Positions 3,065 to 25,966 are shown, counted from the stretch's first letter. The stretch: 64,000 nt of DNA from Candidatus Bathyarchaeota archaeon (GCA_963715865.1 OY970280.1:1408001-1472000); one strand, 5' to 3'. Notes: generated by a model not told the origin, from the letters alone. Numbers and translations: made by a program.

Positions 3065-4237
3065 TTAAGCGCTCCTGTAAATGTGAACTGCCGCTGTAGC
3101 TCCTGACCCGCCAACATTATGTGTTAAGCCTAATTTTGCGTCTTTTACTTGGCGTTTTCCTGCTTGCCCTGTGAGTTGCAGGTATATTTCGTAGGCTTGC
3201 GCTGTGCCTGTAGCGCCGACAGGGTGACCTTTGGCTTTTAAGCCGCCGCTCATGTTAACTGGAATTCGTCCGCCGAGGCGGGTTTCGCCGCTTTCAATTA
3301 GCTTTCCGCCTTCGCCTACAGGGCAGAAGCCTAAGTCTTCATAAGCCATTAGCTCGGCAAATGTGAAGCAATCGTGGACTTCAGCTAAGTCTAGGTCTTC
3401 TGGTTTGGCGTTTGCCATTTCGTAGGCTGTTTTCGTCGCTAACCGCGTTGCTGAGAGTGATGTGAGGCTTTTGCGTTCATACAAGCCAATGGTGTCACTT
3501 GCTTGTCCACTGCCAACTATGTGCACTGGCATATCGGTGTATTTGCTGGCTAATTCTGGCTTGGTTAGGATTATGCAGCTTGCGCCGTCAGTTATCAATG
3601 AGCAATCGTAGAGTTTCAGCGGCCAAGCGACGTAGCGTGAAGCCATGGCGGCTTCGAGGGTGATTTCTTTTTGCATGTGAGCTTTAGGGTTGAGGCTTCC
3701 ATGATAATGGTTCTTGACGGCTGCTAAAGCCATCTGCTCCTGCGTTGTGCCATAAGCGTGCATGTGGGCGGTCGCCATCATTGCGAATAACGCTGGGAAG
3801 GTGATGCCGTGCCACTGTTCAAACGGGTAATCCGACGCCATAGCCAAGTACTCAGTAACCTCAGCCGTTGTGCGATGCGTCATTTTCTCAACGCCGCCAA
3901 CCAAAACCACGTCCGCAAGACCAGACATTGTAGCGTAAATTCCCGCTCGCAACGCTGCGCCTGAAGAAGCACAAGCCGCCTCAGTCCGCGTTGCTGGAAT
4001 ACCAGTGAGTCCTGCCCAATCCGCAACGGCTGCTCCCATGTGACCTTGGTGCTCGTAGGCTTCACCCATGTGCCCGATGAACATGGCTTTAATGTCGTTT
4101 TTCGGGTCTAGTTTGGGGCAGCGGCTGAACGCTTCTTTAGCCGCTTCGGAAAAGATTTCTCTTGCAAGTAAACCATCATGCTTGCCGAACTTGGACATGC
4201 CAGCGCTGACTATGCTGACGAGCGGTTTCCCATACAA
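3065..4237 (-). CDS. Archaeal thiolase (acetyl-CoA acetyltransferase, SCP-x type)
   Basis: EAACASSG catalytic Cys, EVHDCF, GGLKAKGHPVGATG, HNVGG. Confidence 0.93.
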   Translation of the reverse strand: MYGKPLVSIVSAGMSKFGKHDGLLAREIFSEAAKEAFSRCPKLDPKNDIKAMFIGHMGEAYEHQGHMGAAVADWAGLTGIPATRTEAACASSGAALRAGIYATMSGLADVVLVGGVEKMTHRTTAEVTEYLAMASDYPFEQWHGITFPALFAMMATAHMHAYGTTQEQMALAAVKNHYHGSLNPKAHMQKEITLEAAMASRYVAWPLKLYDCSLITDGASCIILTKPELASKYTDMPVHIVGSGQASDTIGLYERKSLTSLSATRLATKTAYEMANAKPEDLDLAEVHDCFTFAELMAYEDLGFCPVGEGGKLIESGETRLGGRIPVNMSGGLKAKGHPVGATGTAQAYEIYLQLTGQAGKRQVKDAKLGLTHNVGGSGATAAVHIYRSA

Positions 4238-4319
4238 ACGCGAAGCTCCCTCTTTAATGCCTATACATTGATGCTAACCCAGAATAAAAACATGCAACCA
4301 GAGTCGCTAGAGCAGGGAT

Positions 4320-4976
4320 ATGTTAACGTTATCTTTAAATGAAACGATTGTAGTATTATTACTACATATGTTGTATAAATACCACATTAATCAGACAACA
4401 CTCAAAATTTTAAGTCTTTTCAGAAGCAACTACAAAACCTCCCTTTATTTAAGGGAAATAGCGCGAGAGATACAAGTTGATGTAAAAGCTGTCAGTCTCC
4501 AACTAAATAGATTGGAAAAAACGAATATCCTAACAAGCATTCAGAAAGGAAAAAACAAGGAATACAGCCTAAACCTCGGCAATTACCTAACTTTATACTA
4601 CATAGTGCTCGCTGAAGATTTCGCGACCATAGAATATCTTGACAGAAATTTTGAAGTAAAGAAACTTGTAAGTGAAACAGCCGACAAGCTAGGAAAAATA
4701 GCTATGCTCTTCGGAAGTTTCGCTAAGGGAAACATGACGCAAGAAAGCGACATAGACATCTTAATCATAGATGATAAAAAACCCGACTTAAGCGTCTTTA
4801 AGGAAGTGGGCAGTCTTCTCAGCCGAGAGATAAGCATCAAATGCATGTCAGAAGAACAATTCTCAAACGGCTTGGCAAACAAGGACCCTCTTACACTCGA
4901 AGTTGCCGTCAATCACATTATTCTTAAAGGATTAGACAACCTATGTAACATGCTGTGGAAATACTATGCAAAATGA
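4320..4976 (+). CDS. wHTH + minimal nucleotidyltransferase (MNT) antitoxin; start may be ~4368
   Basis: LREIARE HTH, FGSFAKG...SDIDIL nucleotidyltransferase motif. Confidence 0.85.
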   Translation: MLTLSLNETIVVLLLHMLYKYHINQTTLKILSLFRSNYKTSLYLREIAREIQVDVKAVSLQLNRLEKTNILTSIQKGKNKEYSLNLGNYLTLYYIVLAEDFATIEYLDRNFEVKKLVSETADKLGKIAMLFGSFAKGNMTQESDIDILIIDDKKPDLSVFKEVGSLLSREISIKCMSEEQFSNGLANKDPLTLEVAVNHIILKGLDNLCNMLWKYYAK

Positions 4977-19415: not shown

Positions 19416-19889
19416 ATGGATGGAAACAAGGCTCTAATAGCTTATGAAACTAAGGGCGGAGCCACTGAAGAGGCAGCACAGAAAATAGCAGAAATCCTAC
19501 GTTCCAAATATCAATTAGAAGTTGACTTAGTTGACTTGAAAGAGCAAAAAGTGCCTGACCTTTCACAGTACAGAAATTTGGTTATCGGCGGAGGCGTCAG
19601 GGCTGGCAGAGTTTATGATAAAGTGTTAAAGTTTCTTGAAAATGACCTCAGTGGCAAACGTGTGGCTTTTTTTGTTTCCTCGGCTGAGGCTGGGTCGCTT
19701 GGAAGCTATGAGAAAGCAAAAATCAAATTCGTAGAAAACACGTTAGCTAAGTATCCTAAGATTAATCCTGTAGCTACGGAAGCCTTCGGCGGGCGCATAA
19801 AAATCCTTGGAAAAACCGTCACCGACAACAGAGACATGGTTAAGGTAGAAGCTTGGGCAGAAGAGCTTGGAAAAAAATTCACAGCATAA
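19416..19889 (+). CDS. Flavodoxin-domain protein (HemG/Flavodoxin_5-like)
   Basis: YETKGGATEEAAQKIA flavodoxin loop, FGGRI. Confidence 0.8.
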   Translation: MDGNKALIAYETKGGATEEAAQKIAEILRSKYQLEVDLVDLKEQKVPDLSQYRNLVIGGGVRAGRVYDKVLKFLENDLSGKRVAFFVSSAEAGSLGSYEKAKIKFVENTLAKYPKINPVATEAFGGRIKILGKTVTDNRDMVKVEAWAEELGKKFTA

Positions 19890-19890
19890 A

Positions 19891-20796
19891 CTAATGTCTG
19901 TTTTTTCTTAAGTATAGGAGTATACCTACGCAGGCAACAGCTACTATTACCATGGAAGCAACGGCGACAGGGACTGTTGGGAAAGGCTCTGGCTTAGTTA
20001 TGGTGAAATTGATGGTTTGTGAAGTGCCAACGTTTCCAGCCTCATCAGTTGCGTAAACCGTCACGTTATGTGCTCCATCAGATAACTGAGTCAACGTCAT
20101 ATTCCCTGTAGTAGTAATGTTCTCATGTCCGTCAAGGCTATACGAGATTTGCGAAACCGTCTTGTTAACCGTGAAATCCAGCGGCACGTCAGATGTGTTG
20201 TAAGCTTTGGTTTCTGGAGATAGGATTGAGATGTTTGGCGGGATGGAGTCAATGTTGAATGAAACTGTTGCGAAAATAGACCACACATAACAACTATAAG
20301 ACAACCAAAATGAATCAGCTCTTATCCAGACTGTTACGTTGTGGGGTCCTTGGGATAAATCAGTTAGGGTCGCGTTGCCCACATAACTATTTCCTATATC
20401 CGAGAGAGCTACGGAAACGTTTTCTGGGAATTCATCAAGGAGGTTAGTGTTTACGATTAGGTCAACAAGTTTAGATGTGTCATAATCCAAAGCACAGCCA
20501 TGCCTTAAAAAAAGGTCAAAAAGACCCCCGCTAAAATTTTCCATTGGTACAACATCGGATTCTATTGTAAAAGCTAATGTAACATTGTTTTCGTTATAGG
20601 TCTTATTATTTTCTGGGGACTGTATGGTGACGTTTGCGTTTGTATTCCCGTTAATGATTGTGTTATTATTAGAGGTTATGTCCCCCTGAACGATGAATGT
20701 CCTTGCTCCATTTTGGATTAACAGTGTTCCAGCTAACACAGAGACAAGAAGTGACAAGATGAGTGTCAATGCTATTGCTTTTTTACTCATGCTCAT
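19891..20796 (-). CDS. Secreted, C-terminally anchored Ig-like surface protein
   Basis: Signal peptide; two I.SP.NK.YN...V.L.FT repeats; LSDGAHNVTVYA; PEPFP linker + TM + KNRH. Confidence 0.75.
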   Translation of the reverse strand: MSMSKKAIALTLILSLLVSVLAGTLLIQNGARTFIVQGDITSNNNTIINGNTNANVTIQSPENNKTYNENNVTLAFTIESDVVPMENFSGGLFDLFLRHGCALDYDTSKLVDLIVNTNLLDEFPENVSVALSDIGNSYVGNATLTDLSQGPHNVTVWIRADSFWLSYSCYVWSIFATVSFNIDSIPPNISILSPETKAYNTSDVPLDFTVNKTVSQISYSLDGHENITTTGNMTLTQLSDGAHNVTVYATDEAGNVGTSQTINFTITKPEPFPTVPVAVASMVIVAVACVGILLYLRKNRH

Positions 20797-20837
20797 CCAA
20801 ATTTACCTAAAAAATGGTTAGCAATAAAAGGGTTTTT

Positions 20838-20886
20838 GTCAAGGTTTCTGGACTAAGCGCCTATGATTTAGTCAAGGTTTCTTGAC
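20838..20886. promoter_or_regulatory. Tandem palindromic sites GTCAAG-GTTT-CTGGAC (20838) and GTCAAG-GTTT-CTTGAC (20871)
   Basis: Read directly; upstream of the surface-protein gene; the same tandem motif occurs at 52666-52713. Confidence 0.5.
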
Positions 20887-21333
20887 AAAAACAAGTTTGC
20901 TATAAGTTTGGTAAATTTTGGGTAGGGGGAGGGGGTATACTATTTGTTTTGTTGTTTGGGTAGCAAATAGCGGGAGGGGGGAGGCAGGTACTGGTACCTC
21001 TTCGTCTGTTCCGTTATCTTCTCTAAAGCCTGTTACATTTCGTCTGCTCAACGGGATTGCTATCGGGATTGGTTTTCTTGGTACAACCTCAAAAGTATAG
21101 AGTACGCCATCTGTTCCCCAACCAGTCATTAATTTCTTGTTTTTGTAGGAGTCATCACAGAAATAGATAACCTCTATTCTTTTACATTCTTTTAATTCCA
21201 GATTGCATTTATGTGCTTCAAAATTTTCAGAGGATAAAATTGTATTACAATGTGAGCATTTAACAATTGCAGAATTAGGGTTTGCTGACATCTCCAATTT
21301 CGGTTCCCCACTGCCCCTTGTTTTTATTAGCAT
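20872..21333 (-). CDS. Zn-finger cargo protein that reads out through the left TIR
   Basis: CSHC...H.C motif; codons EEVPVP lie in the TIR and the stop is in flanking DNA. Confidence 0.6.
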   Translation of the reverse strand: MLIKTRGSGEPKLEMSANPNSAIVKCSHCNTILSSENFEAHKCNLELKECKRIEVIYFCDDSYKNKKLMTGWGTDGVLYTFEVVPRKPIPIAIPLSRRNVTGFREDNGTDEEVPVPASPLPLFATQTTKQIVYPLPLPKIYQTYSKLVFVKKP

Positions 21334-21769
21334 CTACGATATTGTGCAATCTTTTGTTATCAATGACTAATTTATCATTCAACTTTTGCAAGGAATCTAA
21401 TCTTTGTTTTAGCCGTTCAATTTCTTGCTCATAGTCTTTCTGCTGTTGGTTTTTATCTTTAATTGCTTCATAGGCACGCGCTTTCTGTACCAATGCTGTG
21501 AGGTCAAATGCTGATTCAACAAGTTCGCGGTCACTTCCAAAGTCTTTTTGAAACTGATATGTAGCTATTTTAAAACCTAATTCGTTAGGGAAAGATGTAG
21601 TGTGCTTCTTAGCTCTTCTAAAAATATCTTTTCCGTCAACATAGGTATATGTTAAAGTTTTGACTCTTTCAGCTATTATAACTATGTCGCCTTTTGACCA
21701 TTGGTCAATGAATTTCTCTGCTTCGTCAATTATCGCACCTTTTGGCATCAATCTTCGCTCACTATACAT
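21275..21769 (-). CDS. Hypothetical cargo protein with C-terminal coiled coil
   Basis: 164-aa ORF, YEQEIERLKQRLDSLQKLNDKL heptads. Confidence 0.6.
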   Translation of the reverse strand: MYSERRLMPKGAIIDEAEKFIDQWSKGDIVIIAERVKTLTYTYVDGKDIFRRAKKHTTSFPNELGFKIATYQFQKDFGSDRELVESAFDLTALVQKARAYEAIKDKNQQQKDYEQEIERLKQRLDSLQKLNDKLVIDNKRLHNIVDANKNKGQWGTEIGDVSKP

Positions 21770-22045
21770 CTAACTTCCTCACAATGGCAACCCTGCAGCC
21801 GTTTATTATCTCCATTTTCCACTCAAGTTTATCGCTTTCTTTTAGGTCAAGAAAAGCTACTATTCCTTCTGGAACTGTAGCTCGCAAAGATGGCGAGCCT
21901 GGTCTTGCTTCAGTTAATTTACTTTTCAAACTCATTTTAGTTACCTTCTAAAGACATATACCTACAGGTAGTATTTAAGTTTAATTATTGGTTTGCCAAT
22001 ATGTTTAAATATGTAGTTATATATACTATGTGTAGGTAGATTAAC

Positions 22046-23175
22046 ATGGCAACAAAACTAACCTCAAGAGAAGAACGCGGTCAAGCAATAGCAGAACTTG
22101 GCGGACAAGTAAAACGAATAGACGGTTGCACTTACACCGTTAAGTCACAGTCTCATAACGGAGAGTACACCGTAAGAAAGTTGACAATGAATGGATATGT
22201 GAATGCCCAGATAACAAGTACCGACACCTAATTTGCAAACATATCTTTGCGGTTGATTTCTCTAGCCAATTAAGAAGTGAGGTGGCAGTTAACCGAGTTA
22301 TTCAAGAAGTTAATGTTAGCAACTGTCAATTTTGCGGTTCAAATAACCTCAAAAAAGACGGCTTGAGAAAAAACAAGTCAGGAACAATTCAAAAATTCTA
22401 TTGCCGAGAATGCCAACACTACTTCACCATTAACATTGGCTTTGAACGTATGAAGCATAATCCTCAAGCCATAACAACCGCTATGCAACTTTATTTTAGC
22501 GGTGAAAGTCTAAGGAATACTCAAAAGTCTCTGAAACTGTTAGGCGTTGACGTTACTCATAAAACGGTTTTCATGTGGATTAAGAAGTACGTTGCTTTGA
22601 TGAAAGATTATGCTGACAGAATAACTCCCAATGTTAGCGATACATGGAGAGCAGATGAAATCTATGTTAAGGTTAGGGGCAATCTGAAATATTTATTTGC
22701 CATAATGGACGATGAAACCCGTTTCCTCATAAGTCAAGAAGTCGCTGAAACCAAAGAAAAGCATGACGCAAGAAACCTATTCATGATGGCAAAACGGTTA
22801 ATGGAAAAACAGCCAAAAACCCTCATAACAGATGGTTTATCCTCTTACTTTGTAGCATCAAAAGAAGTTTTTGATGAAGCCCAACATATACGCAAAATAA
22901 CGCTTGATGGAAAACTGCATAACAATAACAAAATGGAGCGCATGAATGGAGAAATCCGTGACCGAGAAAAGACGATGCGCGGATTAAAAACTAACGATAC
23001 AGCAATCCTAACGGGTTATCAGATATTTCATAACTACATTCGACCGCACCAAGGCTTAGACGGAAAAACGCCTAGTGAAGCATGCGGAATAATGATAGAG
23101 GGAGAAAACAAGTGGAAAACTCTGATTCAGAACGCTTCAAAAGTCCAAGATTTACCGAACCCAAAAGGCATCTAA
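22046..23175 (+). CDS. IS6-family DDE transposase with N-terminal SWIM finger and Zn ribbon, split by a -1 frameshift near 22175
   Basis: Joining ORF 22046 to the -1 frame gives ...EYTVR-KVDNEWICECPDNKYRHLICKHIFAV (SWIM), CQFC/CREC ribbon, WRADEIYVKV, LITDGL, NNKMERMNGEIRDR; about 376 aa. Confidence 0.88.
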
Positions 23176-23227
23176 TTAATACGGAAAAACAAGCGGAAAA
23201 TCCTAATACAAAACGCAAGTAGAAAAA

Positions 23228-23434
23228 TTATGCACGAGGTTTAATATACCAATTTTGGTCAATCAAGCAATAGCCATCTTCAACCTTTGCCATTTGGGTT
23301 CTGTGTGAACTTGACCCTTTAACAGGTTTGTTATTCTTTTCAATGGTTCTTGCATATACTGTTGCTGAAACAAAATAAACTTTACACCCAGCCGAAGGAA
23401 ATATATCACTTTTGTTCTGATTTTGATTGGGCAT
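23228..23434 (-). CDS. Small hypothetical cargo protein
   Basis: 68-aa ORF overlapping the upstream gene, operon-like. Confidence 0.45.
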   Translation of the reverse strand: MPNQNQNKSDIFPSAGCKVYFVSATVYARTIEKNNKPVKGSSSHRTQMAKVEDGYCLIDQNWYIKPRA

Positions 23435-23858
23435 CCTTGCACTCTACCTTGTTTTCTGTACCTAATTCATTCAAGGCTTTTAGCACAATCTCGGGGTCTA
23501 AGCATAGGTCAAAAATTATGTCGCTTGTTCTTGCGCCATTATGTTGCTCTATATAATTAAATACAAGTTTTTTAGCTTCATCTATTGGAATGTCACCTTT
23601 TAACTCGATTAATTTTGTATTATCGTCAACAACTAAGTAACCACTAACAGGTTGCTTAAGGTCTGGAATAACCCAATTTGAACAAGAAGTTAAATCACCG
23701 CGCATTCTAAAGTCTGCGGTTCCTGTAATAGTTATAGCTGCATTTTCAGTTGTAATCGACTGAATCTGAGCCCCAGTAAGTACTAAAGAATAATTTTTGC
23801 AATCTAAGGAATAGCTTTTTGTTGCTTCTTCTTTTATTTTTTGAAGCGTCACTAACAC
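23406..23858 (-). CDS. Hypothetical cargo protein with C-terminal winged helix
   Basis: GARTSDIIFDLCLDPEIVLKALNEL...KVE wHTH pattern. Confidence 0.6.
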   Translation of the reverse strand: MLVTLQKIKEEATKSYSLDCKNYSLVLTGAQIQSITTENAAITITGTADFRMRGDLTSCSNWVIPDLKQPVSGYLVVDDNTKLIELKGDIPIDEAKKLVFNYIEQHNGARTSDIIFDLCLDPEIVLKALNELGTENKVECKDAQSKSEQK

Positions 23859-23865
23859 CTAACCG

Positions 23866-24081
23866 CTAAGCTACACTAACTACTTGTGCAGATTTTATTA
23901 GGTAGTTGGGTTTACCTGTTAAAGGGTCTGTCTGTTCTAAGCGATATACCTCTGTGAGTATAACATGAACTTTTATTGTGTTGCCATCGGACAATGTATA
24001 TTCGCTAAAATTTTCACCTTTAATTGTAAACTGAACTTGTTCGGCATCTAAAGTTTGCCCATTGGGTAATGTTAATTTCAT
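23866..24081 (-). CDS. Small beta-rich hypothetical cargo protein
   Basis: 71 aa; RBS-like AGGTG; shares L.DGN..KVHV.L..V...P.G.P.Y with the next ORF. Confidence 0.6.
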   Translation of the reverse strand: MKLTLPNGQTLDAEQVQFTIKGENFSEYTLSDGNTIKVHVILTEVYRLEQTDPLTGKPNYLIKSAQVVSVA

Positions 24082-24225
24082 CTAGCCACACCTTAATTTC
24101 TTCTAGAAGTAAATCATTATATCTTTTATGAATTATTAAAGATTATTCCAAAAACTACTTAAGACCGCGTGAAAGCTTGAATAGAAAAAACCCTGCTTGG
24201 TTTTGCCTTAAGTTTTTGCTAGTAA

Positions 24226-24513
24226 TTAGGTTGTGTAAGCCTGTTCACTTTTTTTGTTGACTGTACTCTGAGTTGGTATAGGCGGTGCTGGAGCATAAAA
24301 CGTCTTGTCCTTTGTCTCAATTTCAACTCTTGGATTCAATATAAAGTTGTAAATAGGCGTACCATCAGGTGCTTTTCTATCTATAGCAACACCTACTCTT
24401 GCCAGTTCTACATGAACTTTTAGCAGGTTACCATCTTCTAAACGGAAATTTACCACGTTGCTGCCAACAAGCTTTGCGGAAATTTGCTTAAACTTTATTT
24501 GTTCCTGAGTCAC
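24226..24513 (-). CDS. Small hypothetical cargo protein, probable paralog of 23866-24081
   Basis: FRLEDGNLLKVHVELARV...PDGTPIY. Confidence 0.6.
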   Translation of the reverse strand: MTQEQIKFKQISAKLVGSNVVNFRLEDGNLLKVHVELARVGVAIDRKAPDGTPIYNFILNPRVEIETKDKTFYAPAPPIPTQSTVNKKSEQAYTT

Positions 24514-24915
24514 AAGACATCACTAGTTTCTTATTGAGAGCACGATGTATAATAAACTTTGGAACTGTTTGAGATTCTTGCTTTCGAGTCAAGTCAAATA
24601 ACTTTACGCAAATTAGCAGACGAAAAGTAACATGGAGATGAAACAGTCGGAGAGGTAACAGAGCCGGGAGGCAGGTACTTTTTAGCTGGTAAATATAGGT
24701 CTAAAAAGCAGGCAGGTAGAGGGCAGGGTCATTTTTGTTTGCAAATCTGCTTTTCAAAAAATTAGGTACCGATGAGGATAGGCGCAGTATTCTCTTGGAA
24801 TTTACGCTTTAGCTTTGTTTTGTGCGTCGATAGGTTTTTATCTTACTCGGGGTGGCGAAATCTCCCGCAACCCTCTCTCTTTTTCTTTTTTTAATAGCCT
24901 AAGGAGGGTTTTATT

Positions 24916-25068
24916 TTGAATCAGAAGCAGATTGAAGCGGTTTCGGTTATGGTGCGGATTTTCCTTGCTGGTTTGGCGTTAAATTTTGATGCTAATTTTC
25001 ATGAGCTTGAGGAGATTACGAAGAGGGCTTTGTTTGAAATTGAGAATGCTGAGCAGGGGGTGTCTTGA
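24916..25068 (+). CDS. Small hypothetical protein, 50 aa
   Basis: AAGGAGG RBS then TTG; MNQKQIEAVSVMVRIFLAGLALNFDANFHELEEITKRALFEIENAEQGVS. Confidence 0.45.
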   Translation: MNQKQIEAVSVMVRIFLAGLALNFDANFHELEEITKRALFEIENAEQGVS

Positions 25069-25223
25069 ATGGCTGGGGCAAGACTGAGAGGGATCTATTA
25101 AATTTTAACTTCCTTCCTTAAAATAGGCAAATGTTTCATCATCAAAAAAATTGCAAGGATTTTGAGTGACAGAGGTTGAAGATTTGTGCGATTTAGTGCT
25201 CGACAAAGATTATTGTGATGCCT

Positions 25224-25544
25224 TTAGTTCAACATTTTTGCGTCCAGCTTTTTCTCTAATTGCCGAATTGCCGCACTACCCACCATATCGGTCATGCCCA
25301 TTCCCAAGAAAACGCCTGACCATACGGAAGTTACAGCATTAGGAATGGTTGCAAGAATTGCATTCGCGCTTAAAATGAATCCAACAAAAGTTAACACGAC
25401 TCCAATAAAGAAAACCTGAAACCAGTCTCGCTTATACAAAGGCTTAGTTATAGTCATATATGACGCCAAACTAATTTTGTTTAGTGGAGATATAAGTAGT
25501 TTGATTATGTTTGAGTTGGGTAAGAATCTTTTATGACAGCTCAA
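25224..25544 (-). CDS. Small two-TM membrane protein
   Basis: Two hydrophobic segments; true start probably internal (MTITKP). Confidence 0.5.
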   Translation of the reverse strand: MSCHKRFLPNSNIIKLLISPLNKISLASYMTITKPLYKRDWFQVFFIGVVLTFVGFILSANAILATIPNAVTSVWSGVFLGMGMTDMVGSAAIRQLEKKLDAKMLN

Positions 25545-25657
25545 AAAACTAGACGATAAGCCTGAAAAATGCGTCGATAGGTTTTTATGTTCCGCTTAAA
25601 TCTCTAAGGTGTCACCAACATATATAAAACGGCAAAAGAATGGATTGATGGACCAAA

Positions 25658-25966
25658 ATGGTTAGAAAAGCACGAATACGCCTCACAAGCACAGATTACG
25701 GCAAACTAGAAGAGGTATGCGGAGAACTGAAAAGCATAGCTCAAAAGACAGGCGTAAAAATCAATGGTCCAGTGCCATTACCCACAAAACGATTGCGAGT
25801 GCCAGTTTTAAAAGCGCCTTCAGGTGAAGGAACCGCAACGTGGGACAGGTGGGAAATGCGCATTCACAAACGCTTAATCGACATTGACTCTGAAGAACGA
25901 GTTATGCGTAGAATCATGCGCATCCGTGTGCCAGAAGAAGTCCACGTGACAATCGAACTAATCTAA
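25658..25966 (+). CDS. rpsJ: 30S ribosomal protein S10 (uS10)
   Basis: [27 protein letters not shown]. Confidence 0.97.

Follow-up and report, generated by a model that had tools for sequence, protein, structure and literature searches.

Insertion sequences (IS) of the IS6/IS26 type are textbook transposons that move cargo only as pairs, in the form of pseudo-compound transposons. In a stretch of 64,000 nucleotides from a soil member of the Bathyarchaeia (Candidatus Bathyarchaeota archaeon, GCA_963715865.1 OY970280.1:1408001-1472000; this whole stretch is called the window here, and its positions are counted from its first letter), a transposase gene of this type lies between inverted repeats in the company of seven other open reading frames (ORFs), which raises the question whether one such transposase can mobilize a set of genes by itself. 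An earlier note, made from the sequence alone, had read the locus as an IS6-family unit transposon with 28-bp terminal inverted repeats (TIRs), an 8-bp target-site duplication (TSD) and a central transposase, and had suspected an undescribed archaeal subgroup that moves small accessory or defense genes. The TIRs, the TSD and the central transposase were all recovered, and the segment from 20987 to 24665 (3,679 bp) is very probably an inserted member of a family of archaeal unit transposons, of IS6 type with a DDE transposase, that occurs in Bathyarchaeia and reaches into Nitrososphaeria. An element of this family consists of a transposase of about 380 amino acids (aa), usually a small divergent gene of DNA-binding type, 1 to 7 kb of passenger DNA, and ends that contain two boxes each. 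Features of the window copy are listed in Table 1.

Counted directly on the sequence, the left and right TIRs agree at 21 of 28 positions. The left end begins GGTACTGG at 20987 (in a longer reading, GGTACTGGTACC), and the right end, in reverse complement, begins GGCTCTGT with its terminus at 24665 (in a longer reading, GGCTCTGTTACC). Both ends proved longer than the 28 bp first described: each is bipartite and measures about 62 bp, with a second block of 18 nucleotides (nt), TGTTAC(A/T)TTTCGTCTGCT, placed 45 nt inside the left end and 34 nt inside the right end and 94% complementary between the two. Across the family the tip consensus is GGTTCTGTnA; the right tip of the window copy reads GGCTCTGTTAC, and the left tip is degenerate (GGTACTGGTAC), departing from the consensus GGTTCTGT at positions 4 and 8. 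When the genome (2.35 Mb, single contig) was scanned for GG..CTG tips at most 10 kb apart, with an exact 8-bp TSD and a TIR identity of at least 14/20, only two elements were found, the window copy and one at 668080-673019; by our own arithmetic, about 0.001 structures of this kind would be expected by chance. The GC content of the element is 36.9% versus 42.8% for the genome, which places it in the 1st percentile among 3.7-kb segments.

A related genome (G025, contig C150) matches the region collinearly through the left flank, one target copy and the right flank, and lacks the 3.7 kb (junction, ...GGAGGGTA GGCTACTTTTTAGC...); this is the empty allele that the earlier note had proposed to look for. 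The element landed in an intergenic site and duplicated 8 bp. Direct identity at the two borders extends over 14 bp (GGGAGGCAGGTACT), longer than an 8-bp TSD, since the right flank too starts with GGTACT, and an empty site by itself cannot separate an 8-bp TSD from a 14-bp attachment (att) site. The 3.7 kb might then be a genomic islet placed by site-specific recombination, with the 14-bp repeat as attL and attR and the transposase as an incidental resident. We give this explanation a probability close to nil: no integrase or recombinase was found among the ORFs of the element, the other 25 insertions of the family have exact 8-bp repeats adjoining GG tips, and the additional GGTACT has two origins, being part of the element's tip at the left border and native flank at the right border (GGCTACT in G025). 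The TSD therefore remains 8 bp, and a 14-bp att site was ruled out by the repeats in the related insertions together with the G025 flank.

The IS6-family identity of the transposase was borne out. The ORF at 22282-23175 matched Pfam PF13610 (DDE_Tnp_IS240; E = 5.9e-21), and the window transposase scored 131.6 bits on the NCBIfam IS6 equivalog model NF033587, above its curated cutoff of 125, with an intact relative (P0001, from L036) scoring 141.6 bits. The N terminus of P0001 contains a SWIM finger (PF04434, Pfam-significant) followed by a CxxC...CxxC zinc finger. Residues D208, D267, E301 and R308 were invariant in 12 sequences and are all kept in the window copy, with R seven residues after E. 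The window protein reached only 21.8 bits (cutoff, 200) on the ISC774 model, versus 131.6 bits on the general IS6 model, and is therefore outside the ISC774 archaeal clade. In tblastn searches of annotated phage and plasmid records, IS6 transposases of the IS257/IS26 type were matched at 24 to 28% identity.

The single central transposase of the earlier note is thus present and of the IS6 type, but its frame is split by a deletion of 1 nt, which leaves the SWIM part (22046-22231) out of frame relative to the remainder. The site of the shift has the sequence A-AAG, and a shift into the -1 frame there yields a full SWIM motif continuous with the DDE domain, as would be expected if a programmed -1 ribosomal frameshift expressed the transposase of an active element. 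We consider such a shift improbable, given that in an alignment with eight intact relatives a single base is absent from the window at ACCGT-AAGAAAGTT, that all eight and most of 20 full-length matches have one continuous frame of 369 to 383 aa, and that neither a canonical heptamer nor a conserved frameshift was found in the family; the alignment led us to reject the programmed frameshift. The missing base is most readily explained as a copy-specific deletion or an assembly error, with no family-wide programmed frameshift. Elsewhere in the genome of the window (G000), an N-terminally truncated transposase at 623565-624296 and a scrap at 764708-764779 were detected, and no intact family transposase was found. 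Because its transposase is frameshifted, its left tip is degenerate and no intact transposase of the family was found in the genome, the window copy is most likely an immobile, fixed relic.

Whether the ends and the transposase belong together was assessed across the family. At 18 of 20 loci of the genus with full-length transposases (examined with 5.5 kb on either side), a family-type pair of ends with an exact 8-bp TSD was found, delimiting elements of 2,434 to 6,051 bp. A motif-free finder that accepts any TIR of 13/16 with an exact 8-bp TSD around a transposase, applied to loci from a separate collection, re-found four of the genus elements and added six (2,570 to 8,093 bp), one of them a 2,680-bp element in a Nitrosopumilus chromosome. 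Homologous transposases are hence bounded by TIRs of this kind, as the earlier note had anticipated. Besides the window copy, 24 transposase-bearing insertions with exact 8-bp duplications were delimited in Bathyarchaeia and one Nitrosopumilus genome. All 25 measure 2,434 to 8,093 bp and carry extra ORFs on one or both sides; a bare IS was not found among them (none below 2.4 kb), with a transposase gene of only about 1.13 kb.

Members of the IS6 family normally measure 0.7 to 1.8 kb (PMC7986276), and at 23186-23226 the 3' end of a second transposase persists as a remnant, which is 88% identical to the 3' end of the transposase remnant at 624 kb and shows a separate history of the right arm. 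Both would suit a short, transposase-only IS nested in or beside unrelated DNA, with the outer repeats fortuitous or belonging to another, non-autonomous element, so that the 3.7 kb would be no unit. The chance that this is correct appears slight to us: there is no tip motif nearer to the transposase, the TSD flanks the outer ends, the right arm recurs together with its right end at a second site (see below), and every one of the 25 delimited transposase-bearing insertions is at least 2.4 kb long. Within a unit transposon, the remnant suggests that the right arm derives from a second element that may have become fused to the first.

As judged by ORF clustering, the cargo differs from copy to copy, which answers the comparison that the earlier note had called for. 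The largest element (L051:2582-10674; 8,093 bp) encodes an 891-aa protein with N6-methylase, Eco57I and HSDR_N domains, predicted to be a type IIG-like restriction-modification protein, together with two winged-helix regulators. Passengers of other relatives include a HEPN protein (L039), an NYN RNase (L040), a methyltransferase (L042), a borderline Panacea-type match (L026; 25.2 bits versus a cutoff of 25.7), a pair of DUF3368 and UPF0175 proteins that is faintly marked as PIN family (L076), helix-turn-helix (HTH) regulators and many proteins without an assigned family.

Each tip is made up of two half-sites, for example, TGTAAA and CGTCTG. An ungapped test of similarity between boxes was uninformative because the spacing of the half-sites differs by 1 nt between terminal and subterminal boxes; it was replaced by a test in which the half-sites of each element's own tip were sought 22 to 75 nt inboard at a spacing of 3 to 5 nt. 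Own-tip half-sites scored at least 11/12 in 35 of 50 ends, whereas foreign tips (differing at 3 or more of 12 positions) reached this score in 1.1% of comparisons. The inner box was found at offsets of 34 (22 ends), 43 to 45 (12 ends), 54 (2 ends) and 63 nt (1 end), each step being close to one turn of the helix. Among the end types, the one that diverges most, TGGTGC...CGGGTG (L040, L043 and L056), corresponds to one transposase clade with a support of 100/100 and alone clusters in the transposase tree, in which rows L041 and L048 are cargo ORFs extracted in error; single-base variants of the ends did not track the tree. Since the inner box co-varies with the element's own tip and an end type tracks a transposase clade, these data favor recognition of both boxes by the cognate transposase. 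The tips also carry the IS6 signature, with a GG start, CTGT at positions 5 to 8 and G at positions 1, 2 and 7.

Elements that have the same type of ends and no transposase were also found. One, at C1:668080-673019 in G000 (4,940 bp), is flanked by an exact TSD (TTAATTCA), has ends of the family type with two boxes each (GGTTCTGTTAAG...), gave no match to a transposase and is a non-autonomous cargo element; another, element X in L038, measures 1,276 bp. Their existence would be expected if the ends were served in trans by another transposase and the IS6-like gene were itself cargo. We attach very little probability to this: of 26 delimited insertions, 25 have the transposase between ends of this type; the tips bear the GG and the CTGT at positions 5 to 8 that mark IS6 elements (PMC7986276); the end type that diverges most follows a single transposase clade; and transposase-less copies fit non-autonomous derivatives of IS6-type unit transposons.

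Evidence that cargo and ends travel together came from further copies. Two metagenome contigs, L074 and L075, carry the right arm of the window copy with all four ORFs (nucleotide identity, 91.5% and 97.3%, respectively), L074 also with part of the transposase. Similarity ends at the tip of the right end (24661), beyond which a large-terminase gene is met at its 3' end, with a reading frame that now continues into the right end of the element. The flank is common to both contigs, and they therefore count as one further site only, in a presumed virus or provirus of Bathyarchaeia. That the right-arm genes and the right end recur at this second site shows that cargo and ends move together. Also, in genome G036, one 2,434-bp element occupies two sites with different TSDs (L029 and L030). 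In L074 (702-2138 and 2067-2140), the window-type element is inserted at the 3' end of this terminase gene (Terminase_6N/6C). The four-gene module beside the terminase had been considered as a set of viral genes, which was rejected when the alignment showed an element inserted into the terminase gene.

Several copies bear on how cargo is gained. In 3 of 26 insertions (L025, L038 and L048), the TSD directly adjoins the tip of another family element, and in G000 two solo ends lie 8 bp apart near 547173-547182 (region, 547160-547195), which suggests that resident ends attract new insertions. In L044 (oriented 3787-4400), two left ends lie 548 bp apart; the exact TSD flanks the outer one, which almost mirrors the right end, and the inner one is homologous to the left end of the window copy. 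This locus appears to be a direct example of end recruitment that adds cargo. The abutting insertions, the ends of L044 and the remnant in the window together point to a route of insertion beside resident ends, use of the outer ends and internal decay. The L025 case lies at L025:7795-7810 (oriented 4185-4215), and L048 is bordered by foreign tips on both sides. The other traces of the family in G000 are decayed: no partners were found for the solo ends in C1 at 547016, 547173 and 612772, nor for the 624-kb (623565-624296) and 765-kb (764708-764779) remnants of the transposase. The remnant at 624 kb and the solo end at 612 kb each adjoin tRNA-like sequence, as judged by eye only.

With these elements, transposition might proceed as follows. 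The transposase would bind both boxes of each end and pair the ends, and the GG tips would then be joined to target DNA opened by staggered cuts 8 bp apart. With IS26 as the analogue, elements may insert via a copy-in cointegrate that is subsequently resolved by homologous recombination of the host; the identical copies at two sites in G036 are compatible with this route, not diagnostic of it. An AbrB-like protein encoded by the small divergent gene may regulate the divergent promoter region. Cargo would build up when elements land exactly beside resident ends and the outer ends are used afterwards.

A number of points weigh against this account of the window copy as an IS6-type unit transposon. 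The choice between cointegrate formation and cut-and-paste is borrowed from IS26, and movement was read from comparison of sequences. The frameshift in the window copy could be an error of long-read assembly, in which case this copy might still be active. Identity to bacterial IS6 transposases is only 24 to 28%, and the transposase, at about 380 aa, has two extra N-terminal domains; Harmer and Hall, who define IS6/IS26 sensu stricto by a transposase of about 234 aa that has a helix-helix-turn-helix and is a close relative of Tnp26 and by a 14-bp TIR in which positions 1, 2 and 7 are G (as they are in the tips of this family), would keep archaeal and long zinc-finger-bearing transposases out of that group (Harmer and Hall 2019, PMC6807381). 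No TSD-flanked pair of ends was found at 2 of the 20 genus loci and 7 of the 17 loci of the wider scan (L027, L032, L047, L049, L052, L055, L057, L058 and L067), which may be decayed, recombined or cut by contig ends. G025 belongs to a different species, with about 70 to 80% identity in the intergenic flank, and its allele is orthologous, not identical. Finally, the assignment of an AbrB-like protein and its role as a regulator stand on sub-threshold matches.

Compared with known elements, the family resembles IS26, IS257/IS431 and IS6100 in having a DDE transposase that scores on the curated IS6 model, an 8-bp TSD, GG tips, CTGT at positions 5 to 8 and G at position 7. Whereas those elements measure 0.79 to 0.88 kb, encode the transposase only and have one inverted repeat (IR) of 14 to 20 bp, elements of the family measure 2.4 to 8.1 kb, with 1 to 7 kb of extra genes and ends of about 50 to 80 bp with two co-varying boxes, and in their transposase, 24 to 28% identical only, the N terminus contains a SWIM finger and a zinc finger. 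For published IS6 members, one IR of 14 to 20 bp per end is described (PMC7986276, PMC6807381); in the review of the family, lengths reach about 1.76 kb at most, and just one member is listed with a passenger gene, a single one (PMC7986276). In the present family, a second box lies 34 to 63 nt in, in place of a single short IR of 15 to 20 bp, and none of the 25 transposase-bearing insertions has the compact size (0.7 to 1.8 kb, transposase only) of an IS6 element. The family is thus IS6 by its transposase model, catalytic residues, TSD length and tip motif and atypical by its size, gene content and end structure.

Long clostridial IS6-like elements (the ISCpe7 group, clade VII/h, and the ISTet2 group, clade VIII/i) and ISDsp3 share with the family an N-terminal zinc-finger extension, and ISDsp3 is the sole listed IS6 member with a passenger gene (PMC7986276, PMC6807381). 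These elements are bacterial, measure 1.2 to 1.76 kb and have at most one passenger gene, and for clade VIII the literature gives an additional N-terminal domain of unknown kind together with a signal peptide; the SWIM finger, the archaeal hosts and multigene cargo as the rule set the family of the window apart from them, a separation drawn from the descriptions only. The ISC774, ISH14/ISH29 and ISPfu groups likewise have archaeal hosts and an IS6-assigned DDE core but measure about 0.7 to 0.9 kb and encode the transposase only. In combining one transposase, TIRs, passengers (often toxin-antitoxin or regulator genes) and a presumed replicative copy-in, the family resembles unit transposons of the Tn3 family, which differ in their TnpA of about 1,000 aa, 38-bp IRs, 5-bp TSD and resolvase with a res site. 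The window element shows none of these features; its ORFs include neither a Tn3-type transposase nor a resolvase, and its TSD is 8 bp. Several transposase-binding sites per end at set spacings, putative in the family, are also a feature of Tn7 and Mu, which have unrelated transposition proteins, other TSD lengths and multiprotein machineries, in contrast to the single IS6-type protein seen here.

No description of the family was found in open-access text, including PMC7986276, PMC6807381, PMC6563490 and PMC13343696. In the main survey of thaumarchaeal mobile elements, Krupovic et al. state that no DNA transposon with passenger genes had been detected in archaea and give one or two genes for thaumarchaeal IS (PMC6563490), and a 2026 survey of archaeal IS makes no mention of such elements (PMC13343696). 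The transposase family counts 5,238 database proteins at E <= 1e-10, some of which are already labeled "IS6 family transposase" by NCBI; the protein is known already, the element is not, and the size of the transposase family makes a systematic census feasible. The family is apparently a widespread, undescribed archaeal branch of IS6, and the subgroup with cargo that the earlier note had suspected gains support from the family-wide architecture. With confidence somewhat better than even, we go further and propose that it is a large undescribed family of IS6-derived unit transposons in Bathyarchaeia and Nitrososphaeria, the first archaeal DDE transposons that routinely carry passengers (including restriction-modification, HEPN, NYN and toxin-antitoxin-like genes), with two co-varying boxes at offsets of about a helical turn, in which a tendency to insert exactly one 8-bp target away from resident ends offers a route to fused elements and accumulated cargo. 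If this is true, one IS6-type transposase moving 1 to 7 kb of varied genes would add a missing class to the archaeal mobilome. The hosts are abundant soil and marine archaea, one copy lies within viral or proviral DNA, and genes would be able to pass between archaeal chromosomes and viruses by way of this family. Ends with two co-varying boxes would also offer a natural system for the question of how IS6-type transposases recognize ends and choose targets.

The earlier note had counted two ORFs in the left arm and four in the right; the four were confirmed, and the left arm holds three, of 57 (F2), 164 (F9) and 153 aa (F8). F2 was found in 11 of 19 insertions with an invariant motif, SLR-T-P...L-D-L-W; its profile retrieved AbrB-type entries from the PDB below threshold only (C56 at E = 0.71 and VapX at E = 1.1), and we infer from these a small AbrB-like putative regulator. 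The inverted repeat at 21956-22041, between F2 and the transposase gene, may be its operator. At the F2 position, some of the insertions without F2 have small ORFs that resemble ribbon-helix-helix proteins, by eye only. F9 was present in 6 of 19 elements, with only two database relatives beyond these and structure matches to coiled coils only. F8 has homologues at the equivalent position in five other elements and no match in Pfam or the PDB; it has no stop codon within the left end and terminates 115 nt inside the flank. In every copy (window, 20872-21048; L026, L034, L036 and L037), the F8 frame is open across the entire left end, the last residues, ...TDE(D/E)xT(E/K), being encoded by the transposase boxes and the stop codon coming from the flank of the landing site. 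Since F2, F9 and F8 recur as a whole in 6 of 19 insertions, the left arm may belong to the element's own equipment instead of being free cargo.

The four right-arm ORFs were present in none of the other delimited elements (ORF clustering, 19 insertions). The 150-aa protein has four database relatives, and its predicted model reached a predicted local distance difference test (pLDDT) score of 48.5 overall and about 66 to 77 over residues 91 to 130. The 95-aa protein was modeled confidently as all beta (pLDDT, 86.7), with no structural match (best Foldseek E, 0.24 in the PDB and 0.08 in BFVD; best Z in the wide VIA-align search, 2.8); weak NAC-domain hits of this model were not taken as evidence, and matches to giant proteins, which are Gram-positive repeat proteins of the MucBP/LPXTG type, were set aside as probably spurious. 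Nothing credible was found for the seven accessory ORFs in Pfam, PHROGs or PADLOC, the sole PADLOC hit being a coiled-coil match to LmuB (E = 0.001) that is not credible. The suggestion that small accessory or defense genes are moved thus holds for some relatives, and a defense role for the cargo of the window copy is unsupported.

Table 1. Features of the transposon and its borders in the window
Feature	Position	Strand	Description
Left TSD copy	20979-20986	none	GGGAGGCA, exact 8 bp; single copy in the G025 empty site
Left end (IRL)	20987-21048	+	Terminal box 20987-21008, GGTACTGGTACCTCTTCGTCTG; subterminal box 21031-21048, TGTTACATTTCGTCTGCT, offset 45
F8 ORF	20872-21333	-	153 aa; conserved C-x2-C...H-x-C zinc-finger-like N terminus
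F9 ORF	21275-21769	-	164 aa; C-terminal coiled coil
F2 ORF	21762-21935	-	57 aa; AbrB/SpoVT-like putative DNA-binding regulator, divergent from transposase
Divergent control region, F2/transposase	21936-22045	none	22-nt inverted repeat, 21956-21977 and 22020-22041, 82% complementary
IS6-family transposase gene	22046-23175	+	SWIM finger, zinc finger, HTH, DDE; 1-nt deletion at about 22172-22185; downstream frame from 22282
Second transposase 3'-end remnant	23186-23226	+	41 bp, direct orientation, 81 nt past first 3' end
Passenger ORF, 68 aa	23228-23434	-	Adjoins 150-aa ORF also in L074, L075 and L076
Passenger ORF, 150 aa	23406-23858	-	N-terminal part predicted beta strands; C-terminal part three helices (HTH-like)
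Passenger ORF, 71 aa	23866-24081	-	Paralogue of 95-aa ORF, 26% identity in alignment
Passenger ORF, 95 aa	24226-24513	-	Small all-beta protein; rare family of 37 representatives
Right end (IRR)	24604-24665	-	Subterminal box 24615-24632, offset 34; terminal box 24644-24665, tip GGCTCTGTTACCTCTCCGACTG
Right TSD copy	24666-24673	none	GGGAGGCA, exact match to left copy

The flavodoxin-like and S10 genes that flank the region are about 230 to 480 bp apart in most members of the genus. In the window (19416-25966), the gap between them is 5.8 kb and holds the transposon, a gene for a 301-aa membrane-anchored protein rich in N-glycosylation motifs, and further intergenic DNA; this is a local hotspot for the gain of genes. 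Directly downstream of the 301-aa gene, in the left flank of the element, lies a 25-nt inverted repeat (20832-20892; 80% complementary, 11-nt loop), which may be a terminator or a member of a small repeat family; a sequence resembling it is also present at G000:1042058-1042123.

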